Below are positions 23,703 through 64,000 of a stretch of 64,000 bases of DNA, in pieces. The notes beneath the pieces were generated by a model. It was not told where the DNA came from. It saw nothing but the letters and a program-made list of their open reading frames with translations, and made no database searches. Positions within the stretch are counted from its first letter, which is position 1. The number at the start of each line of letters is the position of its first letter. Made by a program: the position numbers and the translations under genes. Origin of the DNA: Clostridiales bacterium (GTDB lineage: Bacteria > Bacillota > Clostridia > Saccharofermentanales > Saccharofermentanaceae); contig JAFWDK010000010.1 in assembly GCA_017513085.1 (NCBI GenBank), forward strand, positions 256,001-320,000. Direction: 5' to 3'.

Positions 23703-25295
23703 ATGTTAAAAGTTATGATCATTGATGATGAACCTTATATTCTACAGGGTCTTCAGGTACTGGTTGACTGGAATAATGAAGGGTTTGAAGTTGATGCTTT
23801 AATGACAAACGGCATAGATGCCTTGAAATATCTAAAAGATCACCAGGTGGATCTCATCATTTCGGACATTCAGATGCCTTTGATGACCGGGTTGGAGCTT
23901 TTGGAAGAGATCAATAAGCAGAATCTGTCGGATGCTAAATTCGTGATACTTACAGGTTATGACAATTTTTCCTATGTCCAGAAAGCGATCCGCAGCGGTT
24001 GCTTTGATTATATTCTGAAGCCGGTCAGCAAGGATGACCTGATCTCTTTGCTTCGGAAGGTGGCTAATCTGAAGGAAGAGAAAAATATCGTTGAGGAAAA
24101 ACAGAAAAAACTCGAGGATGCATATTTAGCATCGAATCTGATTTCTATAATAAAAGGTAAATATGATGATACGAATATCGAATATGTCAAGAACCATCTG
24201 CAATTAGCGGGTGGTATCCGATTCGTTGATATCGAGATCATGACGGAAGGAATCGTTGATGATGAGGATGATTACGATCTGCGTGTGCTTCAGAAACAGC
24301 TTTTCAATTCTTTAAAAGAAATCCTTAAAGACAATGCCAACCATTTCATTTTTGATGTTTCTTATGAAAAGGACAACTATGATGTCGGATTTATATACTG
24401 TGAGAATATGGCGACACGACGTGATCTTACCGAGGAGGAATTCTTCCGGATGCTTTTGAAAAAACTGGAAGTTGTTTTTACCAAGCCGGTGCGCATTATG
24501 TGCGGAAAGACTGTCCCGGATGTTTCTTCTTTGTCCAAATCATACAGTTCCTGTGCCAGAATCGATAGTATCAAGGGATTTCATAACCAGAAAAACCTGT
24601 ATTTCTATGAAAATGATATCCAGGTTGGTCAAAATGGTATTGTCCTTTGTAAAAACAGCCTGGATGAATGTATTGCGGCGATCCAGTCGAATGATCATGA
24701 AGCAATCAAAACTGCAGTTAAACAGCTTTATGAGGATATGAATAAAGGTGAGAATACTAATAATGTAATAGATCTGAACATTAACTATCTTTTGTTTCAA
24801 CTTATCCATCTGGCTTCGGAACAGGACGATAATGTTAACCAGGAAGAGGTTATCCAGTATATTTCTGAACAATCTTTTGAAAAGTCGATCAATCGAGGCA
24901 GTGCCCAGCATTTTGAGCGATTTGCCATAGAATATGCTGATTACCTTATGGGATTAAGAAAAAATGTATCCCGAGGCATACTTGCGGAGATCGAGACGGA
25001 AATACGAGATCACTATGCGGAGAATATCAGTTTGAGAAATCTTGGCGAGAAATTTTTTATTAACAGTTCTTATCTGGGACAAATATTCCGGAAAAAGTAC
25101 AATCAATCTTTTAAGGATTACCTGACAAATTATAGGATCAACGAAGCATCCAAACAATTAGTCACTACAGAGAAGAAGATCAACAGGATCGCATTCGATG
25201 TAGGGTATAAGGATTGTGACTATTTTATCCGCAAATTCATTGAAACAAAGGGATGCACGCCTTCCAAGTATAGAAAGATGCATCGCGAGACTTGA
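23703..25295 (+). CDS. YesN-type response regulator (receiver + AraC HTH)
   Basis: IIDDE, SDIQMP, TGY, YILKP; C-terminal SYLGQIF...IAFDVGY..YF..GCTPSKYR. Confidence 0.93.
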   Translation: MLKVMIIDDEPYILQGLQVLVDWNNEGFEVDALMTNGIDALKYLKDHQVDLIISDIQMPLMTGLELLEEINKQNLSDAKFVILTGYDNFSYVQKAIRSGCFDYILKPVSKDDLISLLRKVANLKEEKNIVEEKQKKLEDAYLASNLISIIKGKYDDTNIEYVKNHLQLAGGIRFVDIEIMTEGIVDDEDDYDLRVLQKQLFNSLKEILKDNANHFIFDVSYEKDNYDVGFIYCENMATRRDLTEEEFFRMLLKKLEVVFTKPVRIMCGKTVPDVSSLSKSYSSCARIDSIKGFHNQKNLYFYENDIQVGQNGIVLCKNSLDECIAAIQSNDHEAIKTAVKQLYEDMNKGENTNNVIDLNINYLLFQLIHLASEQDDNVNQEEVIQYISEQSFEKSINRGSAQHFERFAIEYADYLMGLRKNVSRGILAEIETEIRDHYAENISLRNLGEKFFINSSYLGQIFRKKYNQSFKDYLTNYRINEASKQLVTTEKKINRIAFDVGYKDCDYFIRKFIETKGCTPSKYRKMHRET

Positions 25296-25351
25296 TGTAA
25301 AACGCACAAACAAAATCATTTTCGTCTTTGGTTTGTTGTACTTTTTTACCT

Positions 25352-25415
25352 AGACTTTTTCGGGTAACTAGTAAGAGTTTTTCGGGTTGTTGAAAAGTAC
25401 ATACAAAACTAAAAT
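25352..25415 (+). promoter_or_regulatory. ABC operon promoter with tandem activator repeats
   Basis: AGACTTTTTCGGGT (25352) and AGAGTTTTTCGGGT (25374), 22-bp period, abutting TTGTTG-17-TAAAAT (25387-25415). Confidence 0.65.
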
Positions 25416-25471
25416 TAAAACATAAATAGTGTCGCGTAAGCGGCCAAAAACAATTTTGAGGAGGTTATGTA

Positions 25472-27130
25472 ATGAAATCGAAGAAGATTTTCGCGCTTAC
25501 AATGGCTTGCATGATGGGTCTTGGTGCATTTGCAGGTTGCGCAAAGAAAAAAGATGAGATCTTGAATTGGAATTTCTTCGCTGCTATGCATGGTAGTGAG
25601 ATCAACGATGGTAACGAGATTCAGGAACTGATCGCAAAAGACACGGGTATTCGTGTTAAGGAGACTTGGCTTGCCGGCCAGACATCCGCTGAGGCTATTG
25701 GTTCTATCGTTGCTTCCGGTGAGCTTCCGGAATTCATCGATGGTGGTGACGGAAGTGAAGAGCTTTACAAGGCTGGCTATCTTGTTGCTTGGGATGATTA
25801 TCTTGCAAAGCCGGAGTTTGCAAATCTTAAAGAGATGTATTCCGACAAAGAGTGGGAAATGTTCAAGCATGATGGTCACATCTATTGGGCGAACGTTTTC
25901 AACAACAGCTATGGTGGAAAGCCGGTTTCTCACGGATTTAACGATGAGGCTTTCTGGATCCAGGTAAGAGTTCTTGAGTGGGCTAACTATCCGAAGATTG
26001 ATACTCTTGATGAGTATTTTGATCTTCTCGAGAGATACTACAAAGAGAACACAACAAACGCTGACGGAACAAAGATCATTCCTTACACATGTCTCTGTGA
26101 AGACTGGAGATATTTCTGTATTGAGAACGCTCCTGAGTTCCTCGACGGTTATCCGAACGATGGTTCCGTTATCGTAAATCTCGATGATCCGGATCATCCG
26201 AAGATCGTTGACTACAACACTACACCTACAGCTAAGAGATACTTCGCTAAGTTGAATGAGATCTATCATAAGGGTTTGATGGATCCTGAGTTCGCTATCC
26301 AGACATACGACGAGTATATGGCTAAGCTTTCTACTGGTGCTGTTCTTGGTATGTGCGATCAGTGGTGGAACTTTGCTGGTACAGTTAATGATAACTTCAA
26401 GGCTAACAAGCTTGATGAGCAGGGCATGAACTACGTACCGCTTGGTCCGACAATTGATAAGGGCATGACAAACCGTTGGTACATTGGTGCTAACGACACA
26501 TTGAACTCCGCTTCCGGTATCGCTGTAACAACAAGCTGCAAGGATCCGGATAAGGCTTTCAAGTTCCTGAACAGAATGCTGGATCAGGATATGCATAACC
26601 TCCGTTTCTGGGGTATCAAGGATGTTGACTACCTCGTAGAAGAAGGAACAGGCATGTTCTACAGAACACAGGAAATGCGTGACAAGTGGGCAGACTCCAA
26701 CTATACAAAGTCTCACTGCTGCATGTATGCATACTTCCCGCAGTGGGGTGGTATGTCCCGTGATGGTATCAACACCATGCAGCCTGGTGACTCCGTAAGT
26801 GAGTTCTTCGCTGGTATGGCTGATCCGCTCGTTAAGTGCTTCAAGGCTTATGGTTACACAGCTTACAACGAGTTCCTCCGTTCTACAGATGGAACAGTTG
26901 GTATCTGGTATCCTATGTATCAGTTCTCTAACAACCTTAAGACTGATACAGACGCTGGTGTTGCTTGGACAAAGATGGGCGAAGTTAAGCATCACTGGTT
27001 GCCGGAAATCGTAGTTGCTGACGATTTCGAAGCAAAGTGGAATGAGTACATGGCTGCTTACGCAGAGTGCAAGCCGGAAGACTTCCTCGCTTACATGCAG
27101 AAGACTCTGGACGATCTCATTGCATCATAA
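25472..27130 (+). CDS. Carbohydrate ABC transporter substrate-binding lipoprotein
   Basis: Basic N-terminus and FAGC lipobox; LplA-like SBP; GAGGAGG RBS; highly biased codons. Confidence 0.92.
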   Translation: MKSKKIFALTMACMMGLGAFAGCAKKKDEILNWNFFAAMHGSEINDGNEIQELIAKDTGIRVKETWLAGQTSAEAIGSIVASGELPEFIDGGDGSEELYKAGYLVAWDDYLAKPEFANLKEMYSDKEWEMFKHDGHIYWANVFNNSYGGKPVSHGFNDEAFWIQVRVLEWANYPKIDTLDEYFDLLERYYKENTTNADGTKIIPYTCLCEDWRYFCIENAPEFLDGYPNDGSVIVNLDDPDHPKIVDYNTTPTAKRYFAKLNEIYHKGLMDPEFAIQTYDEYMAKLSTGAVLGMCDQWWNFAGTVNDNFKANKLDEQGMNYVPLGPTIDKGMTNRWYIGANDTLNSASGIAVTTSCKDPDKAFKFLNRMLDQDMHNLRFWGIKDVDYLVEEGTGMFYRTQEMRDKWADSNYTKSHCCMYAYFPQWGGMSRDGINTMQPGDSVSEFFAGMADPLVKCFKAYGYTAYNEFLRSTDGTVGIWYPMYQFSNNLKTDTDAGVAWTKMGEVKHHWLPEIVVADDFEAKWNEYMAAYAECKPEDFLAYMQKTLDDLIAS

Positions 27131-32202: not shown

Positions 32203-33207
32203 TCAATTCTCTTTTTTAAACCCGGCTAACGGGTTTTTGGAAACCGCTTCGTGAAGAGTGTCGTCATCCACATGGGTATAGATCTGTGTAGTGGCGACAC
32301 TTTGATGTCCAAGTATAGTTTGGAGACTTCGAATGTCAACTTCGCCGTATTTGTACATTAAGGTGGCTGCGGTATGACGAAGCTTATGGACGGAATACAT
32401 GGCAGGATCGATTCCTGAAGCAGATAACAGGTTTTTAATGATATTCTGAATCATCTGAGTACTGATCCGTGTACCACGTTTACTCAGAAAAAGCGCTTGT
32501 TCGTCCTTGACCTTCATTTGATCCCGAATCGGATAATAGTCGCGTAATGCGACTAGACAGGCATTGTTGAGATAGATCGTGCGTTCTTTGTTGCCTTTGC
32601 CTACTACTCGGAGTGTATCATCACGTATATCTGAAAGATTGATCATTTGAAGCTCGGAAAGACGCATGCCGCAATTCAGAAACAGCGTAACGATGCAAAA
32701 ATCTCGTTCTGAACTTGGCTTTGACGAATGTTCGGCTGTTTCCAGAAGGTGAACGCTCTGTTCCAGATTCAGGTATTTTGGTAAACGCTTCGGGCGCTTG
32801 GGTGTTTCCAATTCGTAGGATGGATCATCTTTGATGATCCTCTTCTTTTGGAACAGATATTTAAAGAAAGACTTTAATGTGGCGACTTTTCTGGCACGTG
32901 TGGCGGCAGAAGCTTTGCGTTCGCGGGAAAGAAATATCATAAAGGCGAAAAGATCGTCCTGGGCGATTCGATTCAGGAATTTCTCGTCAACATCGCTGAT
33001 ATCGATATCGTCAAATTGCAGTTTGTCACTGAGTGTGACAAGTCCCCAGTCTTTTTTTAGAAAACGAAAGAAGAGGAGAAGATCGTATTTGTATTCTTTT
33101 ACGGTCAAAGGTGATTTTTCCTGAACAGCCTGCATATATCGCAGGTACTGTTCCAGAATCGGAAAAGTCGCTTGTTCTCCGGATGATTTTCCTTTCGGAC
33201 GCCCCAT
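32203..33207 (-). CDS. xerC: Xer-family tyrosine recombinase (clostridial XerC/XerS-like)
   Basis: TRARK..LKSFFKYL, LPKYL, catalytic R (GMRLSE), K (GKGNKER), HKLRH, LGH, Y (TQIY); GGAGGA RBS. Confidence 0.85.
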   Translation of the reverse strand: MGRPKGKSSGEQATFPILEQYLRYMQAVQEKSPLTVKEYKYDLLLFFRFLKKDWGLVTLSDKLQFDDIDISDVDEKFLNRIAQDDLFAFMIFLSRERKASAATRARKVATLKSFFKYLFQKKRIIKDDPSYELETPKRPKRLPKYLNLEQSVHLLETAEHSSKPSSERDFCIVTLFLNCGMRLSELQMINLSDIRDDTLRVVGKGNKERTIYLNNACLVALRDYYPIRDQMKVKDEQALFLSKRGTRISTQMIQNIIKNLLSASGIDPAMYSVHKLRHTAATLMYKYGEVDIRSLQTILGHQSVATTQIYTHVDDDTLHEAVSKNPLAGFKKEN

Positions 33208-61659: not shown

Positions 61660-62040
61660 ATGATGAAAACAGTCCTAAAGAACACTCACATTCCAAGCCG
61701 TAATGTGGCGAGAAAACCGCATACGAATAATGGGCACAATGCCATAAAAGTTCGTGATCCCGGAACTCGCACACCCATCCACGTTCACGAGATCTTTCTC
61801 AACAGTTGTCGTAAAGATTACACAAGCGTAGAAGTCGTAACCAAGTCAGGTGAGATCATCGATGGAATCATAGACTGTTATGATAAAGACACGATCGTGC
61901 TTCATAACGACATGGCACAATTATTGATCTACAAGCACTCTATCAATTACATTTCTCCCCGAAACGGAAAAAAACTCATCATTCCTGAAGGAGAGATGAG
62001 TCAAATTCCAGATGATGAAGCGTTAATGATTGAAGATTGA
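61660..62040 (+). CDS. hfq: Divergent Hfq-like Sm protein with N- and C-terminal extensions
   Basis: EIFLNSCRK..V....SG..I.G.I..YD...Q.LIYKHSI; follows miaA; AAAGGAGG RBS. Confidence 0.78.
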   Translation: MMKTVLKNTHIPSRNVARKPHTNNGHNAIKVRDPGTRTPIHVHEIFLNSCRKDYTSVEVVTKSGEIIDGIIDCYDKDTIVLHNDMAQLLIYKHSINYISPRNGKKLIIPEGEMSQIPDDEALMIED

Positions 62041-62948: not shown

Positions 62949-63518
62949 ATGAGCGATAACGAGAATAATATAGAATTAGAAGAAATAAACCAGGAAGATT
63001 TTGAGCAGGAGCCGGCGGATGAGAAAACCAGAAACGACTCCTGGTGGGAACGTGCATTATTTGCAGTTCTTGGTTTTTTTGCATTTCTGGGAAGAACTAC
63101 ATGGAATTTCTTTAAAACTTTACCGAGCCGTATTTCAGCAAAGATAAAAGAAAAAATTGCCCAGAAAAAGAGGATGCCTAAGCGTAAATCTATTCATAAA
63201 GTCTATGTACTGGTTGGATATACGACCAAAGAATACGTTAATCGGAAATATCGTAAAGAACGTATTTTATTGATCGTTCGAAGGATCTTGGTAGCATGTA
63301 TCATTTTGATCATTCTGGTTATGGCATATCGTTGGATCATGCCACAGTTGGATACTGACGAATATAAACAGATGATCGGAATCAATGATATCAATGATCT
63401 GACTAAGAGTGATCCTTTTGCCAAAGAATCTACAACAGCAGCTGTGCAATTAGATTCACAAGCAGTTACACCAATTCCATCTGCCACGTCAGAAACAATC
63501 GATAGTAGTAATTCTTGA
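62949..63518 (+). CDS. Hypothetical membrane protein
   Basis: AAGGA RBS, TGcTATAAT at 62913-62921, acidic N-terminus, two hydrophobic segments, basic middle, S/T-rich tail. Confidence 0.75.
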   Translation: MSDNENNIELEEINQEDFEQEPADEKTRNDSWWERALFAVLGFFAFLGRTTWNFFKTLPSRISAKIKEKIAQKKRMPKRKSIHKVYVLVGYTTKEYVNRKYRKERILLIVRRILVACIILIILVMAYRWIMPQLDTDEYKQMIGINDINDLTKSDPFAKESTTAAVQLDSQAVTPIPSATSETIDSSNS

Positions 63519-63526
63519 ATATAAGA

Positions 63527-63560
63527 AGGGGCCTTGAAAAGAAAAGGCCCCTGATTTTTT
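63527..63560 (+). terminator. Terminator of the hypothetical gene
   Basis: AGGGGCCTT / AAGGCCCCT followed by GATTTTTT. Confidence 0.75.
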
Positions 63561-63567
63561 ATAGATG

Positions 63568-63599
63568 CAATTAAACAAAATCACAGTTTTGTTTAATTG
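63568..63599. other. Perfect 13-6-13 palindrome, candidate dif site
   Basis: CAATTAAACAAAA-TCACAG-TTTTGTTTAATTG; AT-rich arms, 6-bp asymmetric spacer. Confidence 0.5.
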
Positions 63600-63623
63600 G
63601 GAAGAGGTTTTATAATATAGAAG

Positions 63624-63684
63624 AAACTCTTTCCGAAATATGTTCCAAGCTTACTGAAAGCTTTGTTTTCCGGAAAGAGTTTTT
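63624..63684. terminator. Long hairpin, probably a bidirectional terminator downstream of leuA
   Basis: AAACTCTTTCCG / CGGAAAGAGTTT with internal AAGCT/AGCTT; T-rich on both sides. Confidence 0.55.
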
Positions 63685-63744: not shown

Positions 63745-64000
63745 TTAACGGATCATTCTATTTAATGCGCATACGACAGCTCGCAGTGATGATTTGGTTA
63801 CAGAACTTGAAATTCCTGCTCCAAGATGCAACTCTTTATTATCGTCTTCAAGTTGTACATATGTTATAGCCGCAGAATCTGATCCGCTCTTAATGGCGTG
63901 CTCATTATACATCTTGATGGATATTTTAATGTTCAAGTTCTTTTCAAGACCATTACAGAATGCATCCAATAAACCAATACCATCTCCGTTGATCGTGATG
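63745..64000 (-). CDS. leuA: 2-isopropylmalate synthase, C-terminal regulatory domain (partial, runs off the window)
   Basis: NGDGIGLLDAF...YNEHAI..GSDS.AITYV...GAG......SSLRAVVCALNR. Confidence 0.75.
   Translation of the reverse strand, partial: ITINGDGIGLLDAFCNGLEKNLNIKISIKMYNEHAIKSGSDSAAITYVQLEDDNKELHLGAGISSSVTKSSLRAVVCALNRMIR

Follow-up and report, generated by a model that had tools for sequence, protein, structure and literature searches.

In the XerCD/dif system of E. coli and the CodV–RipX/dif system of B. subtilis, as set out in the accessible parts of PMC5357621 and PMC3025954, two paralogous recombinases act at a single-copy site at the GC-skew shift point, a 28-bp sequence in which distinct 11-bp XerC and XerD half-sites flank a 6-bp centre. 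Systems with one recombinase have also been described. XerS of streptococci and lactococci acts at one terminus site, difSL, in cells that have FtsK; the site is 31 bp long with unequal, imperfect arms around a long central region, the inner ends of the arms form an A-run and a T-run, and site and recombinase gene form a module in which the site comes immediately before the gene (accessible parts of PMC1914069 and PMC5357621). XerH of Helicobacter and Campylobacter acts at difH, the natural arms of which are unequal with AAAA and TTTT at the centre (PMC5241119; see also PMC3325230). A small asymmetry outside the centre of difH is thought to order the reaction, and XerH forms stable, still structurally asymmetric complexes on an artificial left-arm palindrome (available part of PMC5241119), so that a symmetric site is workable. 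The archaeal XerA/dif system also relies on a single recombinase and is described as FtsK-independent (PMC5357621, accessible part).

For Clostridia, whether of the Oscillospirales type or others, literature searches listed no paper that describes a dif system with a single Xer, and none is described in the accessible parts of PMC3025954, PMC5357621, bioRxiv 10.64898/2026.07.08.737213, 10.1101/542381, PMC1914069 and PMC5241119. The dif predictions in the available text of PMC3025954 are confined to genomes with XerCD orthologues, and its supplementary dif lists may include Clostridia. Here we analyse a palindrome at the end of a 64,000-nucleotide stretch of a Clostridiales genome (the window), which we consider with a probability of roughly 0.85 to be the core of a chromosomal dif-type site served by the lone Xer recombinase of that genome. 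The system is very probably of a known kind, a one-enzyme version of the Xer/dif terminus system, in uncultured rumen and gut Clostridia. What is new is the combination of a distinct Xer subfamily, identical loxP-like arms, a one-sided tract coupled to the spacer and, in the family of this genome (f1), a site unlinked from its gene.

The window corresponds to G000:C5:256001–320000, in an assembly of 3,059,185 bases in 36 contigs that is 99.4% complete, and the site lies at C5:319,568–319,599, where the plus strand reads CAATTAAACAAAA TCACAG TTTTGTTTAATTG. Perfect 13-bp arms around a 6-bp spacer that reads CTGTGA on the minus strand had been noted in a preliminary description of this DNA, and both the sequence and a repeat scan agreed (inverted repeat I2, 13-6-13, arms 100% complementary). 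This is the layout of a dif-type site, with two inverted arms around a central region of 6–8 bp. Cre/loxP, a phage plasmid-maintenance system, likewise has a short asymmetric spacer between perfect inverted repeats of 13 bp and works as a homotetramer. Compared by architecture only, the arms and spacer described here resemble those of loxP, which differs in its spacer length and in not being a chromosomal terminus site. Compared with difSL, the site is 32 bp long, with identical 13-nt arms and a 6-nt spacer, and shares the A-run and T-run that flank the central region; compared with difH, it shares the AAAA and TTTT at the centre and differs in the identity of its arms. The arm ends given in the preliminary description, one arm ending in AAAA and the other starting with TTTT, are indeed printed for both difSL and difH in the accessible part of PMC5357621. 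With respect to XerCD/dif, the 6-bp centre is common to both, whereas identical 13-mers here replace the distinct 11-bp half-sites.

Since the arms are identical, asymmetry resides only in the spacer and in a flanking G-rich tract, and not, as in difH, in the arms themselves. The description of the site as fully symmetric therefore holds for the 13-nt arms and fails for the conserved unit, in which the one-sided tract is coupled to the orientation of the spacer. We found no counterpart of this conserved tract in the accessible accounts of difSL. The palindrome gave one match in the window at up to three mismatches, and none of 100 dinucleotide-preserving shuffles gave any. Across the whole assembly it was unique even when up to four substitutions were allowed, in line with the single copy that had been anticipated. 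One copy per chromosome, as in dif-type sites, was found in the genome of the window, in 21 of 23 same-genus genomes and in each of the more distant genomes G207–G210 and G075. The features of the locus are collected in Table 1.

Table 1. Coordinates in the window of the candidate recombination site, its presumed enzyme and neighbouring hairpins.
Feature	Position	Strand	Remarks
Only Xer-type tyrosine recombinase gene of the genome, 334 aa, presumed enzyme	32203..33207	-	30.4 kb from the site
Intrinsic terminator of ORF 62949-63518, outside the site	63527..63552	+	9-bp stem, 6 G-C pairs, T-run; -19.9 kcal/mol
Candidate core recombination site (arm-spacer-arm)	63568..63599	.	Perfect palindrome, unique in the assembly
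Arm 1 (CAATTAAACAAAA), presumed site for one Xer monomer	63568..63580	+	AATTAAACAAAA invariant across genera and families
Asymmetric central region CTGTGA, presumed strand-exchange region, gives direction	63581..63586	-	Spacer conserved in genus
Arm 2 (TTTTGTTTAATTG), exact reverse complement of arm 1	63587..63599	+	From sequence and inverted-repeat listing
One-sided purine tract (GGAAGAGG) abutting arm 2	63600..63607	+	Conserved asymmetric part of the unit
Hairpin downstream of LeuA-like gene, probable terminator, outside the site	63624..63682	-	Inverted repeat I1; -23.5 kcal/mol

The genome encodes four tyrosine recombinases, of which only the 334-aa protein is Xer-like, so that in a genome of this completeness the claim of a lone Xer gene some 30 kb away was borne out; the others are a 267-aa protein beside hsdS and a pair of phage-type integrases (390 aa and 368 aa). 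The proposal that the enzyme is XerS/H-like fared less well. The protein scored below all curated cut-offs, with 226 bits against the XerC model (cut-off 335), 203 bits against XerD (330), 197.2 bits against XerA (NF040815, 220) and 136.1 bits against XerS (NCBIfam NF003462, 267), and it therefore falls outside the XerS, XerC and XerD equivalogs and below the XerA threshold. Its nearest solved structures were XerD (E 1.2e-33) and XerA (5hxy, 4.9e-33), and XerH (5jjv) was far weaker (1.4e-16); nor did the protein match any curated XerH model. By sequence the enzyme is thus nearer to XerD and XerA, about equally, than to XerS or XerH, and the proposal stands only in the sense that there is one recombinase, as in XerS, XerH and XerA and in contrast to the two paralogues of XerCD. 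Aligned with XerD, the enzyme shows the same residues in the R, K, HxxR, H and Y motifs of the active site, giving the intact catalytic set of a cognate Xer; the connection between enzyme and site comes from gene adjacency in other lineages, as described below. Of 90 genomes of the order, 89 contain an orthologue (49–82% identity), with one strong match in each except G154, which has two. An FtsK of 856 aa with alpha, motor and gamma domains is encoded on C5 about 48 kb from the site. The presence of FtsK is shared with the XerS system and, together with the gamma domain, with XerCD, and sets these bacteria apart from the FtsK-independent XerA.

Separately, the gene of the 267-aa tyrosine recombinase adjoins an hsdS-like gene for type I restriction specificity (L002, G000:C9:8490-11394), an arrangement that is probably a phase-variable restriction-modification shufflon.

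A dif-type site is expected at the replication terminus, where the GC skew shifts. On C5 all 10-kb bins up to 320 kb had positive skew and all later ones negative skew, and the cumulative skew reached its maximum at C5:319,797, about 200 bp from the site, which coincides with the only switch from positive to negative among the 32 oriented segments of the assembly. The inversion of skew that had been put forward as a check was therefore found in the genome of the window, and all 16 genomes tested (the genome of the window, 10/10 same-genus genomes, G024, and G207, G208, G075 and G210) had positive skew to the left of the site and negative skew to the right; 10 of these tests are not independent because synteny is conserved within the genus. 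In G024, a complete chromosome from family f2 in a single 1.81-Mb contig, the site and the skew maximum are 310 bp apart; in G207, G208, G075 and G210, with GC contents of 39–54%, the switch falls within 2–11 kb of it, and in some genomes the maximum is up to 10.9 kb away. The only switch in the opposite sense in the assembly, on C10 at about 158,522, marks the probable replication origin.

The second check, an inversion of strand polarity, gave a corresponding result, in that replication-polar words invert within about 2.5 kb of the site. The word AGAGAAGA is biased towards the leading strand in co-oriented genes (257:39) as well as in anti-oriented ones (95:23), and on C5 it is distributed 47:4 to the left of the site and 0:17 to the right. 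GGGGAG similarly converges on the site in G207 (18:1 and 1:15), G208 (18:2 and 1:21), G210 (9:2 and 1:11) and G024 (11:4 and 1:8). As the orientation of genes changes at the terminus together with the polarity of the words, what these counts show is replication polarity and not recognition by FtsK. A further word, CCGGAGG, is the most strand-skewed 7-mer of the genome (394 leading, 50 lagging), with a bias that holds in anti-oriented genes (67:14). We rejected it as an FtsK-orienting word, since it does not invert on C5 (14:4 to the left of the site, 4:0 to the right).

We then consider conservation, which had likewise been proposed as a check. Of 23 species genomes of the genus, 21 contain a single copy of the core AAACAAAA-N6-TTTTGTTT. 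A control with the pattern reversed matched one genome. The spacer is CTGTGA in 18 of these 21 relatives, with single-base variants in the remaining three. In oriented alignments of the genus the conserved block extends over about 55 bp, beyond which the flanks cannot be aligned. The 32-bp site is invariant, yet the product of the adjoining ORF is only 55–81% identical within the genus. Order-wide, among 196 genomes at least 90% complete, 25 match (including the genome of the window), with 22 of 88 in family f1 and 2 of 25 in family f2. Genera g14–g19 keep the arms CAATTAAACAAAA with the spacers CTATCA, CTTTCA, CTTTAA, CTTGCA, CATACA and CATTCA, and in G024 the site has different neighbours and the spacer TTATTA. 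Across genera and families the arms thus stay the same, and it is the spacer and the flanks that differ by lineage.

A wider scan, with one genome per GTDB species, gave at least 118 loci; among 80 of their titles most were Oscillospiraceae, Oscillibacter, Vescimonas, Scatomorpha, Mageeibacillus or 'Clostridiales' MAGs. Arms across these loci are typically 12–13 nt long (AATTAAACAAAA plus one base), and TTTTTA and TCTTTA are the typical spacers among the matches listed. The site was found in none of 43 genomes of family f3 and none of 39 of family f4, which hold the Xer orthologue at 49–66% identity. Nor was it found at up to two mismatches in any of 42 genomes of g20, the sister genus and the largest in the family; with spacers of 3–12 nt, two of 31 g20 genomes matched, both in a chance-like manner. 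Searches within 80 kb on either side of xer, within 20 kb on either side of miaA, with arm mismatches and with variable spacer lengths all failed to locate it. The sites used instead by g20, f3 and f4 were searched for and not found. In the g20 genomes sampled (G111, G152, G117, G131 and G151), xer and miaA are both far from any skew switch, and the terminus region of this genus is rearranged.

Outside the clade, none of three pattern matches examined had a clear skew switch (two had none and one was ambiguous). A match in Psychrobacillus is a chance hit, with skews of −0.146 and −0.148 across the site and no switch. Matches in Chloroflexota/Dehalococcoidia, in which the arms enclose the spacer TGCCTG, were not counted as the same system, as they showed no clear switch and no adjacent Xer: in a Dehalococcoidia MAG the skews were +0.03 and +0.09, with no switch and with Xer not adjacent, and in a Chloroflexota MAG the skew was weak and ambiguous. 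These loci (L082, L086, L109, L111, L122, L131, L146, L172, L173 and L176) share the form CCTTA-TTAAACAAAA-TGCCTG-TTTTGTTTAA-TAATAGCAC with conserved flanks, and, from the two genomes tested, represent a different, unexplained palindrome.

Taken with its single copy, its position at the skew switch and the convergence of polar words, this conservation supports the original proposal of a dimer-resolution (dif-type) site of a single Xer. A palindromic, single-copy sequence at the skew switch in every genome tested would also suit a terminus-specific protein without any part in recombination, such as a replication-fork trap or a terminus-organizing factor. In model bacteria, fork-trap and terminus-organizing sites occur in several copies, unlike this unique site. 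Conserved arms around a free 6-bp spacer are, moreover, the core anatomy of tyrosine recombinase sites, and in the wider clade the site is physically linked to the orthologous tyrosine recombinase gene in 54 of the 118 loci listed and forms an int–attP-like pair with it in a phage (see below). We therefore regard binding by a terminus protein as very unlikely.

The linkage is as follows. The recombinases whose genes adjoin the site in G207, G208, G210 and G075, starting 85–283 bp from it, share 44–51% full-length identity with the 334-aa Xer. In the 54 linked loci the N-terminus of the orthologous xer is 16–210 bp from the site, and transcription of the gene always leads away from the site, a module that recalls the position of difSL just upstream of xerS and that is found in most lineages of the wider clade. 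G210 has an additional, canonical XerD-like gene 3 kb from the site, 32% identical to the Xer of the window, so that a single recombinase is established for the genome of the window and not for the whole clade. Family f1 differs from the wider clade, and from the XerS arrangement, in that gene and site do not adjoin: where they share a contig (G000, G014, G002 and G099) they are 30–54 kb apart, and 30–46 kb apart in this genus. At 29 family-f1 loci, no palindrome was found at a distance of 1.5 kb or less from xer. In the preliminary description the site was considered unusual for being unlinked from its recombinase gene; unlinked it is, both in this genome and in family f1, of which the layout is typical rather than odd. 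In G024 the gene asd separates site and xer by 1.4 kb, and in the window asd neighbours xer.

The proximity of site and gene in most lineages, with xer always pointing away, and the perfect palindrome, which is typical of operators, raise the question of whether the sequence is simply bound by a regulator, possibly by the recombinase itself, and takes no part in resolving dimers. Within this genus and family, however, the site is 30–54 kb from xer and is nevertheless kept in 21 of 23 genomes, and a search for a half-site near xer in the window found none. In the window the site lies between two convergent gene ends, so that there is no promoter there to control. Its position tracks the terminus and not any particular gene. 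That the site keeps its place on the chromosome when xer moves favours a positional role over a purely xer-regulatory one, and we consider it highly improbable that the sequence is merely an operator. The natural split between linked and unlinked lineages also offers a means of separating the positional role of the site from any regulation of xer.

Eight viral contigs matched the pattern. One of them, G216 (L300–L303; 41,402 bp, rated 96% complete), encodes portal, tail, replisome-organizer and Sak4-like proteins, and its sole tyrosine recombinase (25,002-25,874, minus strand) is an Xer orthologue 44% identical to that of G207. Beside this gene, between the late and early gene blocks, lies a palindrome at 24,933 with the same arms and the spacer TAAAAC. 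The pair has an int–attP layout, and G216, a near-complete tailed temperate phage, probably integrates at host dif-type sites by means of a captured Xer module. Two further viral contigs, of 5.7 and 25.6 kb (L296 and L297), contain identical fragments in which the site (locus 2001-2026), accompanied by the AAGGGGAGG tract, lies between an NYN-domain gene and the large terminase gene. With regard to whether these represent an integrase-less phage that exploits Xer, the longer record carries a serine recombinase and is only 57% complete.

An Xer-orthologous integrase beside a palindrome with the same arms, and the viral contigs that carry site and tract together, could be taken to mean that the chromosomal sequence is chiefly an attB for phages or elements with Xer-family integrases, kept for that purpose or by accident. 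Serving as attB would, however, bring no benefit that could hold 32 bp invariant over 21 species. The recombinase is chromosomal in 89 of 90 genomes, not located inside an element, and is the single strong match in all but one; in the genome of the window, neither a second copy of the site nor an element junction was found beside it. The use of host dif sites by phages is a known consequence of such sites and not an alternative to them (PMC5357621, accessible part), and an attachment site as the primary function is in our view most improbable.

In the genus, the gene order around the site is mutS-mutL-miaA-hfq-lexA-ORF / site / leuA-like, and in the window the site falls between ORF 62949-63518 (plus strand, no Pfam family) and the 3′ end of a gene for a LeuA dimerization domain (minus strand, ending at 63745). 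The flanking genes had been said to have their own terminators on both sides. On the left this is correct, with a canonical terminator; on the right it is only plausible, for the hairpin is strong and lacks a T-run, which is why the terminator scan missed it. That the palindrome itself is a transcription terminator or another RNA hairpin is extremely unlikely: as RNA it folds at −12.5 and −10.5 kcal/mol (z-scores near −6), and in a minority of lineages complementary bases lengthen the stem, but no T-run follows it on either strand, stronger hairpins belong to both flanking genes, the arm sequence itself and not just its pairing is conserved across families, and no Rfam model matched at its gathering score (best 28 bits against 60).

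Two further observations concern the neighbourhood. The Hfq homologue of the window (61660-62040, plus strand; 126 aa, with the Hfq domain at residues 44–102) has a basic, histidine-rich N-terminal extension of about 40 residues. In G009, 2.3 kb is inserted between the site and the LeuA-like gene (L037 309-2360, right of the site), with a GC content of 39.8% against 46.8%, and encodes a 683-aa secreted S8-peptidase-like ORF with repeats; a remnant of the leuA 3′ flank remains beside the site. We considered whether this insertion is a dif-targeted element and rejected the idea, as it is an ordinary inserted gene with its own terminator, to which a nearby arm-like 12-mer belongs.

Returning to the dif-type site, we infer binding, the positions of cleavage, dimer resolution, a dependence on FtsK and any role of the tract by analogy with the described systems. 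Each of the two identical 13-nt arms would be occupied by one monomer of the Xer encoded at 32203-33207. In a chromosome dimer, a pair of these sites would synapse in parallel, with the non-palindromic spacer CTGTGA setting the register, and the resulting tetramer would exchange strands at the spacer borders and so resolve the dimer. FtsK is presumed to deliver the sites and to license the reaction at the septum; what is observed in this respect is an FtsK with a gamma domain and polar words that converge on the site.

The site provides a sequence-defined marker of the terminus and a candidate dimer-resolution system for a large and mostly uncultured group of rumen and gut Clostridia. It could be used to orient draft genomes and MAGs, to recognize dif-integrating elements and to develop unmarked genetic tools in Clostridia. 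It also constitutes a natural test case for how a single-recombinase Xer system orders strand exchange and how FtsK activates it, questions that are discussed in PMC5241119.

The flanking tract merits separate consideration. In the genus it reads CYTCTTCYC on the strand that bears the spacer as CTGTGA, and in other lineages CTCCCCT. The C-rich tract lies on the 5′ side of the strand with the pyrimidine-rich spacer, and the G-rich strand always reads away from the site. Among 51 xer-linked sites, the side of the tract follows the orientation of the spacer in 43 of 44 clear cases; 31 of these 43 concordant tracts are on the side away from xer and 12 on the xer side. As the tract follows the spacer, it belongs to the site and not to gene expression signals. 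A reading of the purine tract as a ribosome-binding site was likewise rejected, since flanks inspected by eye showed no start codon at a consistent distance, and the tract-side gene of G208 points towards the site and stops 66 bp short of it. In the window the tract is the last plus-oriented GGAAGAGG on C5, and the direction of its G-rich strand is opposite to that of the replication-polar words on the same side.

The resemblance of the tract to replication-polar words raises the doubtful idea that it is a built-in polarity element, which might dock, load or block FtsK at just one side of the site. If this were so, a symmetric site bound by identical monomers would gain a defined 'activating' side, which would order strand exchange in a manner unlike the arm asymmetry of XerCD, XerS and XerH, and the tract would offer a direct handle on the licensing of single-recombinase Xer systems by FtsK.

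Some loci of the wider clade depart from the usual form. The arms are extended to 15 nt or more by complementary outer bases in 11 of the 118 loci listed, some of which are chance hits, and such extensions could hint at a hairpin role. In L120, L156, L106, L167 and G024 (L005) the arms reach 17–22 nt, with outer bases that are lineage-specific yet complementary; this could reflect templated correction of quasi-palindromes or a role as a hairpin or cruciform. Finally, one Oscillospiraceae MAG contains three palindromes with the same arms and different spacers (L079, L080 and L125). The first two are about 900 bp apart on one contig and the third is on another, where it alone is linked to xer; the three may represent a dif-flanked module or an integrated element.
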